Below, one piece after another: positions 6,001-9,000 of a DNA stretch of 27,123 bases. The position numbers were made by a program. Source of the stretch: a virus (taxonomy: Duplodnaviria > Heunggongvirae > Uroviricota > Caudoviricetes); the IMG/VR virus record IMGVR_UViG_2563366879_000003, positions 1-27,123 of that record; one strand, 5' to 3'. Position 1 is the first letter of the stretch; the number at the start of each line of letters is the position of its first letter.

Positions 6001-9000
6001 GGCCAAGTTCAGAAATAAATAACGCGTCGCCGGAAGCCACGTCATAGACGGTTTTACCCCGATGGTCTTCAACGAGATGCCACGATGCCTCATCACTGTT
6101 GAAAACAGCCACAAAGCCAGCCGGAATATCTGGCGGTGCAATATCGGTACTGTTTGCTGGCAGACCTGTATGAGGCGGAATATATGCATCACCTTCACCA
6201 ATAAATTCATTAGTTCCGGCCAGCAGATTATAAATTTTTATGGTCCGTGGTTGTTCAGTCATTCTGAAATCCATGTTCACCTCTACTTAATATCAGAGAC
6301 AGAATATTGTTTATTGAGCGTATGGGTGTGAGCACCAATAACGATGCTACTTCCGTGGCTATGTGCGCCAGAGGTGACATTACCTACGGGATTTTCTGGA
6401 TTAATCCGGTGTATATGCGAACCAGTGCGAAACCGGTTATTAGCCTGATGTTGTATCAGTACATCATCAGCCTGATGTTCAGGGTTAATACAGACCTGCC
6501 CGGAACGTGAGCAATACGTCCGATAATCGCCGCATCCAATATATTTAGTATCCGCATAACGGCAAACAGAATTACCCGGACAGTATGCATATGTGCCAAA
6601 TACTGCCGACTGGCGGGATTGTGCGTATTCCCAGTTAATTGATTCTGTTTTTTTATTAAAGTTATCCCATGCCTGCTTCATCTGCCGGGCAACACTTTCA
6701 AACGGCACCTGACCACATCCGGCCCCCATTGCAGGGAATACCACCGTCTTTATTTTCCTGTCTGTCGTTGCGTTTTTATTGTGCTGAAAGATGGCAAGTA
6801 AAGCGGCCCACGTAGCGTTATATACAGCGTCTGTTCCGTCAATTGTCAGCGGAACACGCATTGTTGGCGCATGTACCAGCCAAGGGTGATGATTATGTCC
6901 CGTTTCAATAACAAATGCAGAACCTACAGGCTGCTCGCCTAGATATTCACGAAGAATATGATTCTGAACGCGGGACTGTAACTGAGTACCGAAGAATGCG
7001 GTAATGGCGGCATCAACACCGCCATCCATCAGGCCGAAACTGTTTGCCGCACTTACCATGCAGTCAAATTCCCTGATTGTTTCAAATGGCTTTCCGACAA
7101 TATTCACATTATCTGCGTTTGCAAATACCCGCTTAAATGCTTCAGCCATTTCTGTTACTGGTGCAGAAAGAATGAGCGTAATCATGCAAGCCTCACAATA
7201 TAGTTAAATGCGATGTTTTTGACGGTGTTTTCCGCGTTACCCGCAGCGTTAACGGTGATGGTGTGTCCATGTGACCCAATCGCAACGGAGTGCGTATGAG
7301 CACCAATACCGACAGTATGTGCATGTGCGCCAGCACTTGCTGCAGTACCAGACAGCGAGTGGGTATGAGCACCTGCTGACTGTGTCTGAATACGTTGATA
7401 ATACGATCTACTGGAAGAAGTCCCCGGGCTTACTTGATACTGTGAATCCTTGACATAAGTGAACCCACCGCCATCATAAAATGCTAACGCAGAACCGCCG
7501 CCTCCTGGCCAACGAATACCATTACCATGAGTATGAGCACCGGCAGACCCCGTAGAGCCACTCAGACTGTGCGTATGCGCCCCGGTGTTATTCGTGGATT
7601 TAGTGCCGTAATCAAACGACGATGTGGTTTTCGTCCCCAAATCCGTACTGGATGCGCTGGCGCTGTGGGTGTGCGATTTAATGCCGTCCTGTTCCTGAGA
7701 CAATACGGCACGACCACTGGCAGGTTTGCCCTTAATCGTCCAGCCACGCATATCAGGGATCACGCCTGACGGATAAGCGGCTGCGAGTTTCGGGTAAGCA
7801 GATTTGTCAAAAGTCTGCCCCTGCATCAGGGCATAACCAGACGGAACGGTATCTGATGGCCACGGGATTGGTGCGCCGACTGGGTAGCTTTCTGGTGGAA
7901 GATTTTTCGAGGTATAAACTTCTGCCCAGTCTTCCTCAAAACCATAGCCATCTCTTGAGGAACGGTAGAACAGACCTCCATTTCTGTAATGTGCCTTCAT
8001 CTGCAAGGTCCGGCAACTTCCGACTCCGGTATAGAAGTTAACCAGAATATAGCTGTCGCCAGAGCGGGTGACATTGTAAGCGCCTGATTCGGCATTCCAT
8101 GGAACGCCCCCATCCGCATCGGCATACGTATCCGTTGCCCTTCTGGCAAAAGCAGCCACATGCGCGGCGGTTAAAGTAATATCTTTGGAACCATCAAACT
8201 CAACACCAGAAACCAGTCTTGGCGTTTGCAGCTTTGTTGCTGTTAATGCATTACCGTTCAGACTTGCGGACAGTTTGGTTCCAATAACCAGTTCGCCGGT
8301 TGCGTTATCAATAGCAAACGGTCTTAATGTATTCCAGCCACCATAAACATCACCTTGATTGGTAAGCAGCAGGTAAGTTTTAGCGCCATCATTACGCCAT
8401 AATGCACCATACTCCCCACCTATCATTCGAATCTGATTACCACCACGCGCTACAATTTCGTCTGTGGCAAAAAGTTTTTTGCACGACAAGTTATCGTTAA
8501 CGATTAACGAATGAGACTCATAAAAACCACGCCCACTCTTAAAATCAAGGATAACGTCCGCCGCGATACATTCAGTCGCTGGATTTGTTGCCCCAAACTT
8601 ATAGGTCGTATCATTAACAACGAGATCAGCACCAGGTGCGGATATTGACAGGCCATCTTCGATAAACGCAAAAACAGGGAAAGCAGCGCCATCAACATAG
8701 AACACAGAGCGCAAATCATCGCCCTTATTACTCATCATTATTGAGTGGATGGCTCGTTCATTGTTTTGATATTGCCAGAACATTCCATAAGCATAACGCC
8801 CCCTGTCAGTCCAGCCACCAGGCATAACAAATCCGTTAAACTCGCAGTTATTCATCGGATCGCCTGCGGTTCGCGTTGCCGTGGTGATAATGACCCTTGA
8901 TGCCAGTTCGCTTACTGAGCCAGCAGAACGCATAACAACAACAGGGTAATATTTTCCAGATGTTGCACCTGCAGGAGCGTTAACCCGCACATAACGCATA

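Follow-up and report, generated by a model that had tools for sequence, protein, structure and literature searches.

Several described systems offer points of comparison for the gene considered here. Yeast Ymx7 (YMR087W, PDB 1njr) is a stand-alone macro domain of ~200 aa and the single studied member of the Macro2-type clade; its substrate is ADP-ribose-1''-phosphate derived from eukaryotic tRNA splicing, from which the phosphate at the 1'' carbon is removed. The clade was defined, and Ymx7 placed in it, in PMC6397177, where protein de-MARylation activity is reported to be absent from Macro2-type members. That phage macro domains can be counter-defence enzymes is a recent finding, the example being AdfM (PhiKZ gp104 / PhiPA3 gp108), which removes ADP-ribose from DNA and acts against DarT2 (PMC13309987). 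A survey of phage macro domains argued that they counter mostly soluble ADP-ribose derivatives and also proposed virion packaging for some of these proteins (PMC9503650). As for tail fibres, a preprint on Pseudomonas phages reports that the folded side tail fibre together with its chaperone can switch on TIR-based (type II Thoeris) immunity, which signals through His-ADPR, and that the alleles of this pair determine the activation (bioRxiv 10.64898/2026.06.04.730250). The host effector of that defence, ThsA, has a macro domain fused to a membrane domain and senses His-ADPR; its link to the present locus is an idea only. Finally, the fibre tips of T4 gp37 and lambda Stf have a His-box (GxHxH) needle; what the present protein has in common with them is two or three copies of this motif close to its C-terminus and a gene next to that of a Tfa-type chaperone. 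The T4 gp37 boxes coordinate iron in the trimer (PDB 2XGF).

In the window, by which we mean the whole 27,123-nt stretch of Caudoviricetes DNA analysed, a 300-aa ORF with an ATG start lies on the minus strand (6283..7185) between the side tail fibre gene stf and the assembly chaperone gene tfa, and it joins a macro domain to a Cys- and His-rich C-terminal segment. The Gifsy-1 counterpart (STM2588.1n, ~70% identity) shows the same stf-macro-tfa order with a start/stop overlap; its tail extends 36 aa beyond a conserved HQ motif and has about one GxHxH box, against 62 aa and three boxes in the window allele.

The stf-macro-tfa locus

The features of the locus are as follows.

5693..6274, minus strand: tfa, tail fibre assembly chaperone gene of the lambda Tfa type, 193 aa from the ATG at 6274
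6275..6285, minus strand: macro stop TAG (6283-6285) and 8-nt spacer (6275-6282), 3' end of the 909-bp cassette
6286..6465, minus strand: variable His-box tail, residues 241-300 (conservation, motif search)
6466..6600, minus strand: Cys-rich module, residues 196-240 (conservation, AlphaFold2)
6601..7185, minus strand: predicted macro domain, Macro2-type (Ymx7-like), residues 1-195 (Pfam, AlphaFold2, Foldseek)
7182..7185, minus strand: ATGA overlap of the stf TGA stop and the macro ATG start, three bases in common
7182..10625, minus strand: stf, side tail fibre gene, longest ORF 1147 aa

The stf product has a lambda-like start, MAVKISGVL, at residue 11 (~position 10595), matches phage_tail_N (E=6e-72), Gp34_trimer, Collar and Phage_fiber in Pfam, and bears several GxHxH boxes at its C-terminus. 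Tfa matches Pfam Caudo_TAP (E=1e-43) and PHROG 105 (E=2e-99); the ORF listing also gives an alternative GTG start upstream at 6280, whereas RefSeq takes the ATG.

The first-pass annotation had described the ORF as wedged between the two genes and translationally coupled to them. Both the ATGA overlap and the 8-nt gap were found, and the coupling is confirmed from the overlap and spacer sequence. The final stf codons (GTGAGGCTTGC) contain a GAGG that precedes the macro ATG by 5 nt and can serve as a candidate ribosome-binding site for the macro gene, while the Shine-Dalgarno-like 8-nt spacer between the macro stop and the tfa ATG, AGGTGAAC, would supply the cassette's own Shine-Dalgarno for tfa. 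The ATGA junction is present in 35/35 assessable related loci, its sequence being identical in Chuche, Gifsy-1, SEN5 and an SSU5-like plasmid. Inspection by eye of GTGAGGCTTGCATGATT revealed no slippery heptamer that would point to a Stf-macro frameshift fusion at the ATGA. Neither a promoter nor a terminator signal was found inside the 909-bp cassette, and a classical moron with its own promoter and terminator was rejected on that account. The prophage in the window is defective, with head and tail-shaft genes absent, and its macro ORF is intact.

Relative to lambda-type loci, the macro gene is a clean 909-bp cassette: homology to HK629 and phage 204576 ends at the macro ATG and restarts exactly at the tfa ATG. 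Apart from Chuche, the matching phage records listed align as two pieces, the stf 3' end and tfa, with nothing between them, and stf abuts tfa in two typical E. coli loci, in agreement with the earlier statement that tfa directly follows stf in loci of this type. Many homologous stf-tfa loci do without the macro gene, including some whose Stf 3' ends and tfa are 95-97% identical in DNA to those of the window; for tfa, such near-identical genes (95-97% nucleotide identity) belong to lambdoid phages. This indicates that the macro gene is dispensable for the fibre itself, as does its presence at 131 places in E. coli against ~14,000 tfa-homologous places.

The gene is real and well conserved. Of 5,426 complete E. 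coli genomes 128 have it, in one case with 100% identity, and the recurrence of the same gene and junctions in these 128 genomes and in 35/35 assessable loci led us to reject a mis-assembly or an artefactual ORF. Carriers include E. coli and Salmonella prophages, in which the insert is common (e.g., Gifsy-1), as well as P2-like phages and phage-plasmids of two kinds, SSU5-like and P1-like, and the slot is always that between stf and tfa. The 35 assessable loci come from four or more phage lineages. Among the clusters retrieved, P0001 from E. coli is the most populated, with 579 member sequences. PHROG 2613 (function unknown) matches the protein over its full length (E=1.1e-148, residues 1-271, profile positions 1-272 of 274), and database names already exist: "macro domain-containing protein" or "phage tail protein" in RefSeq and STM2588.1n in Gifsy-1. 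The architecture had been called non-standard, which holds in that no curated domain covers the C-terminal module, but not for the protein as a whole, which belongs to a large and already annotated family. Our literature search found no paper on this macro family or on tests of its function.

Fold, clade and conservation of the macro domain

The macro domain proposed earlier from N-terminal signatures is borne out by Pfam, AlphaFold2, Foldseek and a PDB profile search, and we confidently assign residues ~1-195 to the three-layer alpha/beta/alpha macro fold. Pfam Macro (PF01661) matches residues 44-169 over model positions 1-118 of 118 (E=8e-19, 68.2 bits against a cut-off of 22). In the AlphaFold2 model every 10-residue block from residue 1 to 190 has a pLDDT of ~93-99, and its Foldseek search returned 202 PDB chains at E≤0.001, headed by yeast Ymx7 (1njr, E=4.1e-11); the best 50 of these 202 comprise macro domains and designs based on the macro scaffold of TTHA0132. 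The PDB profile search likewise placed 1njr first (E=1.2e-16, positions 3-180).

It is this profile and fold ranking, and not Pfam Macro_2, that puts the domain in the Macro2-type (Ymx7) clade, the Macro_2 match (PF14519) being partial (residues 42-112) and below its gathering score (23.8 against 27 bits); many family members are listed with precomputed Macro_2 matches. The two proteins share N-S-[FY]-G...G-G-[FV]-D, H-x-P-T and the G-rich loop, and the ~200-aa stand-alone domain of Ymx7 corresponds to residues 1-195. Their identity is only ~20%, however, and the phage protein adds the Cys4 and GxHxH module and the fibre-operon location. With AdfM and DarG2 it would share the notion of a phage counter-defence macro domain, but those proteins belong to a different clade, and AdfM is nucleus-localised in jumbo phages and not encoded in a fibre operon. 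Membership among DarG/AdfM-type DNA de-ADP-ribosylases was accordingly rejected: the antitoxin_DarG model of NCBIfam gives 12.7 bits where 250 are required, DarG structures come 18th and 50th among the best 50 Foldseek matches listed, and the PhiPA3 homologue of the window's macro domain is gp271, not gp108 (AdfM).

The motifs A46-A47-N48, G55-G56-V57-D58 and F150-P-A-M-G-A-G156 are present in the window allele. Across 104 family members, N48-x6-G55-G56-V57-D58 and the loop P151-A-M-G-A-G-C-G158 are invariant, and N48, D58, H105 and the G-rich loop, likewise invariant, align with the Ymx7 motifs; these ADP-ribose-binding and catalytic motifs, typical of active macro-domain hydrolases, are conserved in the family. 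The N-x6-G-G-[VLI]-D motif is a mark of active MacroD-type hydrolases, and the N, D and H of Ymx7 are reportedly catalytic. Together with a macro-domain dN/dS of 0.07-0.20, the invariance of these residues in the 104 members suggests an enzyme kept under selection.

At E≤1e-10, 1,310 cluster representatives match the macro domain. The best 150 of them are mostly stand-alone proteins of ~200 aa, with some eukaryotic fusions. Of the relatives that lack the tail, P0124 is closest (64% identity); on its phage contig it is flanked by ParB/methyltransferase genes and the terminase. Other relatives are located among small early genes in Rhizobium phages and within the structural module of Microcystis phage Mae-JY35.

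The C-terminal Cys4 and GxHxH module

Residues 196-240 form a Cys-rich module with three invariant cysteines, C202, C225 and C232, and a fourth, C208, present in ≥90% of the 104 sequences; H237 is invariant in a nine-sequence alignment only. AlphaFold2 predicts a beta-hairpin at residues 211-225 (pLDDT 68-84), and the CPx4C...Cx6C pattern combined with this predicted hairpin looks like a zinc ribbon. The module has a dN/dS of 0.15-0.53. The GxHxH repeats noted earlier in this segment are indeed there, as three boxes at residues 255-259, 273-277 and 284-288, a number reached in 0/200,000 shuffles of either the whole protein or the tail alone. The first box keeps G255 in all 104 sequences and H257 and H259 in ≥90% of them, and the Cys module and this box are kept across genera at 43-62% overall identity. 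Beyond it, the tail varies in length (21-62 aa) and box number (one to three or more), and its distal part is almost neutral (dN/dS 0.25-1.2). The third box is lost in P0001, and natural alleles truncated after the first box exist (P0023, 255 aa, 8 contigs). As a monomer the tail is modelled with pLDDT <50, and AlphaFold2 run on a family-only alignment gave a worse model (mean pLDDT 58.7).

The description of this segment as fibre-tip-like holds for the GxHxH motif and not further: there is no DNA or domain homology to fibre tips, the ending ...NYIVRLA is missing, and searches for fibre-tip homology gave no Pfam match (Phage_fiber at E=8.9) and no PDB match at E≤10. The best local alignment of the tail to a fibre tip amounts to 13 of 36 residues, and the collar/tip domain is absent from the tail. 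We rejected the idea that the stf 3' end recently gave rise to the tail, DNA matches being ≤16 nt, i.e., at chance level. Protein searches (few candidates, limited sensitivity) and phage tblastn for the module in other proteins, whether on other payload domains or within fibre proteins, gave only family fragments, and we rejected both placements. Judged from these searches, the Cys4 and GxHxH module appears to be specific to the fibre-locus family, with nothing matching it in Pfam or the PDB.

Possible roles of the macro protein

Our preferred reading, which we hold tentatively, is that of an accessory late cargo gene encoding a putative hydrolase of ADP-ribose derivatives that would work inside infected cells and probably serve counter-defence. 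Inserted precisely between stf and tfa as a 909-bp cassette, it would be translated with Stf and Tfa; the product would bind an ADP-ribose derivative and hydrolyse the group at the 1'' position, possible substrates being small ADP-ribose-derived molecules and ADP-ribosyl adducts produced by NAD+-dependent host immunity. Action would take place in the cytoplasm, at the time when structural proteins are made. The C-terminal module, a small element, would probably bind metal and either assemble the enzyme into dimers or trimers or dock it to a Stf/Tfa assembly intermediate. An intracellular role is favoured by the relatives of the domain, which include the stand-alone proteins, P0124 and the early genes of Rhizobium phages, and by the argument of PMC9503650. 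The AdfM precedent makes phage counter-defence by a macro domain realistic. The reported lack of de-MARylation activity in the Macro2-type clade counts against the reading in that it blurs the substrate range of the phage enzyme, and so does the Macro_2 score below its threshold. PADLOC, whose library consists of defence and not anti-defence proteins, returned no match for the macro protein, which carries little weight. A late fibre-operon position is unusual for counter-defence genes, which are more often early, and this too counts against the preferred reading.

The slot fixed in 35/35 loci and the fibre-like motif of the C-terminal module mean that a structural or assembly role also fits, and attachment to the fibre is possible, although less well supported than a free hydrolase. 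The protein could be a virion-associated passenger of the side tail fibre, which we regard as unlikely; its Cys4/His-box tail would fold with the help of Tfa, like T4 gp37 or lambda Stf, and would oligomerise or attach to the fibre, displaying the macro domain as an enzyme or a binding module. Consistent with this are the fibre and chaperone neighbours in every assessable locus (lambdoid, P2-like, SSU5-like and P1-like phage-plasmids), the co-expression with stf expected from ATGA coupling, the conserved first GxHxH box, and the associated fibres, all of which have a His-box tip ending in ...NYIVRLA and a lambda-type Tfa. A tail that cannot be modelled as a monomer is expected if folding needs an oligomer or complex, and the Mae-JY35 relative within a structural module and the packaging proposal of PMC9503650 point the same way. 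The covariation data speak against it, however: one macro/tail allele turns up beside at least eight distinct clusters of Stf tips, and tail distance follows Stf-tip distance weakly (rho 0.45) while following the adjacent macro domain and tfa strongly (rho 0.82-0.93), the latter being what linkage alone would produce. Nor does the macro domain behave like a receptor-binding part, since its conservation (83-99% identity) far exceeds that of its neighbours, the Stf C-terminus (63-100%) and Tfa (56-100%); in one example of shuffling the macro domain is 99% identical and StfC 72%. The near-neutral distal tail, the loss of its third box in P0001 and the lack of homology to fibre domains beyond the motif add to these objections, known macro ligands are intracellular nucleotides and a side-fibre passenger would not be injected, and no supporting experiment was found behind the RefSeq label "phage tail protein". 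The same shuffling relative to the Stf tip would suit a hitch-hiking cargo, a reading to which we give a comparably low probability, in which a single capture placed the gene between stf and tfa, perhaps by recombination at repeats coding for His boxes that left the His-box tail as a scar, and the gene then spread with the highly mobile fibre-tip/tfa cassette; its position would be meaningless, its benefit to phage or lysogen unrelated to fibres and its tail largely vestigial. Clean cassette ends with conserved flanks permit homologous exchange, and the weakly constrained tail of variable length, the truncated P0023 alleles and the ORF intact in a defective prophage all agree with it. Yet the conserved Cys module, with its constrained dN/dS, and first His box make that part no neutral scar, and there is no DNA-level trace of an stf origin. 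This reading shares the enzyme role with the preferred one and differs only in denying a link to Stf and Tfa.

Two further proposals tie the protein more closely to the fibre. It might be a fibre assembly or quality-control factor that removes from Stf/Tfa an ADP-ribosyl modification set by an ADP-ribosyltransferase of the host or a competitor, or that delivers metal to the fibre's His boxes. For it one can cite where the gene lies and how it is coupled, a C-terminus rich in His and Cys with the potential to bind metal, and co-segregation with the N-terminal half of Tfa (rho 0.82). We consider it improbable: near-identical Stf tips and Tfa work without the macro protein in lambda and many other phages, our literature search found no ADP-ribosylation of tail fibres, and the Tfa correlation is as expected from physical linkage alone. 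By analogy with the Thoeris work we may also speculate, as a long shot, that the macro protein, made in step with Stf and Tfa, quenches an immune signal provoked by Stf-Tfa itself, hydrolysing or sequestering the 1''-linked ADP-ribose signal (His-ADPR or gcADPR), and that the module might tether it to the complex. If true, this would be without precedent both as a macro-domain anti-Thoeris enzyme and as a counter-defence gene lodged in the operon of the structure that it protects.

What stands unexplained is the strict fibre-chaperone placement in several unrelated phage lineages and a conserved Cys4 and His-box module seen nowhere else. The abundance of the gene in Salmonella and E. coli prophages, including the model prophage Gifsy-1, and in inducible P2-like phages makes genetic testing easy. 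A generic ADP-ribose-1''-phosphatase with no phenotype would make this an ordinary cargo gene, while a macro protein that rides on the fibre would be a new kind of fibre accessory. The identity of the substrate would show which ADP-ribose-based host processes are relevant late in enterobacterial infection.

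Layout of the stf-tfa junction and spread of the cassette

The 300-aa ORF that the first-pass annotation had set between stf (side tail fibre) and tfa (fibre assembly chaperone) does exist, and is read from the minus strand:

7182..10625, minus: stf, lambda-type side tail fibre (Pfam phage_tail_N, E=6e-72, with Gp34_trimer, Collar and Phage_fiber)
6283..7185, minus: macro ORF, 300 aa, ATG start
6283-6285, minus: macro stop codon
5693..6274, minus: tfa, lambda-type tail fibre assembly gene (Pfam Caudo_TAP, E=1e-43)

The tight coupling described for this junction is also borne out: the stf TGA and the macro ATG share 7182-7185, and 8 nt (AGGTGAAC) separate the macro stop from the tfa ATG. 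Homology to macro-less lambdoid phages, at 95-97% DNA identity in the flanks, stops at the macro ATG and restarts exactly at the tfa ATG; since it breaks at those two points, the insert is a 909-bp cassette comprising the ORF and a spacer that provides tfa with a Shine-Dalgarno sequence. Within the cassette, no signal resembling a promoter or terminator stands out.

Among 5,426 complete E. coli genomes, 128 carry the macro gene, under the label 'macro domain-containing protein'; the copy in strain 2009C-3133 is 100% identical. Homologues of the adjacent tfa occupy ~14,000 places in 5,236 genomes, so ~1% of tfa-type loci carry the cassette. Gifsy-1 (gene STM2588.1n) shares the fibre-macro-tfa order, as do the P2-like phages SEN4/SEN5 and Chuche, an SSU5-like phage-plasmid and a P1-like phage-plasmid, the last with a frameshifted macro gene. 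All 35 assessable loci have an upstream fibre ending in ...TVKNIA[FY]NYIVRLA, overlapping the macro ATG. These proteins form a large family, chiefly from Salmonella, which corresponds to PHROG 2613 and is labelled 'unknown function'. Stf tips from at least eight different clusters occur alongside a single macro/tail allele, and distances between the C-terminal tails follow the neighbouring macro domain and tfa (rho 0.82-0.93), not the Stf tip (rho 0.45).

In Salmonella phage SEN34 (locus L005, 4001-4183), a stretch 60% identical to residues 184-244 of the macro protein lies in no clean ORF, downstream of the fibre and chaperone genes and adjoining an O-antigen acyltransferase gene. What remains there of the Cys-rich module appears to come from a macro gene that has decayed.

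Macro domain and Cys4/His-box module

Residues 1-195 are a macro domain, and the motifs on which it had been recognised, AAN48...G55GVD58 and F150PAMGAG, are present. The protein matches Pfam PF01661 (E=8e-19), residues 1-190 are modelled by AlphaFold2 with pLDDT ~93-99 per 10-residue block, and Foldseek returns 202 PDB matches to the model at E<=0.001. Yeast Ymx7 (YMR087W), an ADP-ribose-1''-monophosphatase and the sole studied Macro2-type member, ranks top both by family profile (E=1.2e-16) and by fold search (E=4e-11). All 104 family members compared keep N48, D58, H105 and the glycine-rich loop unchanged, and these residues line up with the matching motifs of Ymx7; pairwise dN/dS of the domain is 0.07-0.20. 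The protein belongs to the macro superfamily and, by ranking, to the Macro2-type clade, its score with the Pfam Macro_2 model lying under that model's own threshold. Members of this clade reportedly convert Appr-1''-p to ADP-ribose and lack de-MARylating activity (PMC6397177).

A DarG/AdfM-type enzyme was rejected as the class of this protein, which scores 12.7 bits with NCBIfam DarG against a cut-off of 250. The jumbo-phage lookalikes of the domain (PhiPA3 gp271, Noxifer) are distinct from AdfM, the characterised anti-DarT macro protein (PhiPA3 gp108 / PhiKZ gp104).

At E<=1e-10 the domain is matched by 1,310 cluster representatives; the best 150 listed are mainly stand-alone proteins of ~200 aa, with a few eukaryotic multidomain proteins. 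Its closest tail-less relative (64% identity) sits in a phage accessory region adjoining ParB and methyltransferase genes, and Rhizobium phages carry further stand-alone relatives among their early genes. In Microcystis phage Mae-JY35 (locus L051, 4935-5492), a stand-alone relative with 36% identity has start and stop codons overlapping its neighbours, and a peptidase-S74 fibre/spike gene lies two genes downstream of it. The surroundings look like a structural module, and a Macro2-type gene may have entered a tail module independently here.

Residues 196-300 are family-specific: Pfam and PDB searches with this module gave no match, and searches for it outside the family returned only the family and its fragments. 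C202, C225 and C232 are invariant, C208 is kept in at least 90% of sequences, and H237 is invariant in a 9-sequence alignment; together with a predicted beta-hairpin (residues 211-225), they look like a small zinc ribbon. The module as a whole is not modellable as a monomer. The tail after the Cys region spans 21-62 aa with a varying number of GxHxH boxes. The expected boxes are there, three in all, starting at residues 255, 273 and 284 (0 of 200,000 shuffles contain three). The first box is kept across the family, with G255 invariant and H257 and H259 shared by at least 90% of sequences; the remainder of the tail changes quickly (dN/dS 0.25-1.2). The third box has been lost from P0001, the E. 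coli cluster with the most members among those retrieved (579 sequences), in which GTP[TI]HTL replaces GAHTHTL. The proposed "fibre-tip-like segment" keeps its motif-level resemblance to the Stf His-box region and nothing beyond that, and a fibre-tip domain was rejected as the protein's identity.

A 255-aa allele (P0023), seen on 8 contigs, is truncated right after the first box. In two retrieved sequences, P0018 (463 aa) and P0253 (190 aa), a portion of the macro protein follows an unrelated N-terminus; one has ParM/StbA-like Pfam domains and the other DUF1441, and both are probably deletion products or assembly chimeras rather than real architectures.

The surrounding prophage

The prophage in the window is defective, with no lysis, head or tail-shaft genes, and its element alone cannot give the macro protein a place on a virion. 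A run of genes from integrase to IS200 (10596-27123) is followed directly by stf-macro-tfa-cdtABC:

25828-27123, plus: integrase
23013-25484, plus: RecE-like exonuclease
19935-20456, minus: YdaT-like gene
15962-18253, minus: AAA_13 ATPase
13282-14370, minus: DUF968/ydfU
12516-13268, minus: antiterminator Q
10716-11225, minus: IS200 transposase

The IS200/stf junction occurs in none of the complete E. coli genomes in the collection. Over positions 1-7877 the window matches strain 2009C-3133 at 99.87% identity, and in that strain a full tail region lies upstream. The two stf genes differ in their central part (window 7878-10625): only the final ~690 nt (99.9% identity) and ~1.5 kb at the N-terminal end (95%) align. 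Translation of stf likely begins at MAVKISGVL, at residue 11 of the longest ORF. Its central region, long and rich in Ala/Ser, also gives rise to extended spurious ORFs in other frames and on the opposite strand, e.g., 9349-10098 (plus).

Just downstream of tfa lie the cytolethal distending toxin genes cdtC, cdtB and cdtA (2693-4902, minus). cdtA is broken into two reading frames (4549-4902 and 4080-4589) by one G too many close to 4587, as compared with 2009C-3133, where cdtA is intact; this is either a frameshifted pseudogene or a sequencing error. The AAA_13/SMC-like ATPase of the early region (763 aa) hits PDC-S06, a candidate defence family in PADLOC (E=7e-72), with weaker matches to LmuB and PrrC-like models, and may be a prophage-borne defence gene.

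Possible roles of the macro protein

To our knowledge, all macro ligands are intracellular. This, the conserved catalytic motifs and the strong purifying selection speak for an enzyme that remains active on an ADP-ribose derivative, from whose 1'' carbon it would, by analogy with Ymx7, strip a group. Nearly identical Stf/Tfa pairs do without the macro gene, and since it is dispensable there and the cassette is clean, we class it as accessory cargo and not as a core part of the fibre. Our favoured reading, held tentatively, is a late-expressed, cytoplasmic enzyme whose hydrolysis of an ADP-ribose derivative would be directed against NAD+-dependent host immunity; this fits a broader inference in the literature, that countering soluble ADP-ribose derivatives is the main task of phage macro domains (PMC9503650).

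The strict placement of the gene and the conservation of the Cys4 and first His box keep three other explanations alive. That the protein travels as a passenger on the fibre or virion is unlikely, and we are similarly doubtful that the gene is purely a hitch-hiker whose tail is for the most part a vestigial scar; that the protein works on Stf or Tfa directly seems improbable. According to a 2026 preprint, side tail fibre and chaperone alleles decide whether type II Thoeris, whose signal is His-ADPR, is activated (bioRxiv 10.64898/2026.06.04.730250). By analogy, that the enzyme would quench an ADP-ribose-derived immune signal provoked by the co-expressed fibre-chaperone complex is a long shot.

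We found no paper on this macro family, which is already catalogued and uncharacterised. Measured against characterised systems, the novelty lies in three features occurring together: a Macro2-type enzyme, a Cys4/His-box module peculiar to the family, and an unvarying position between the fibre and chaperone genes.
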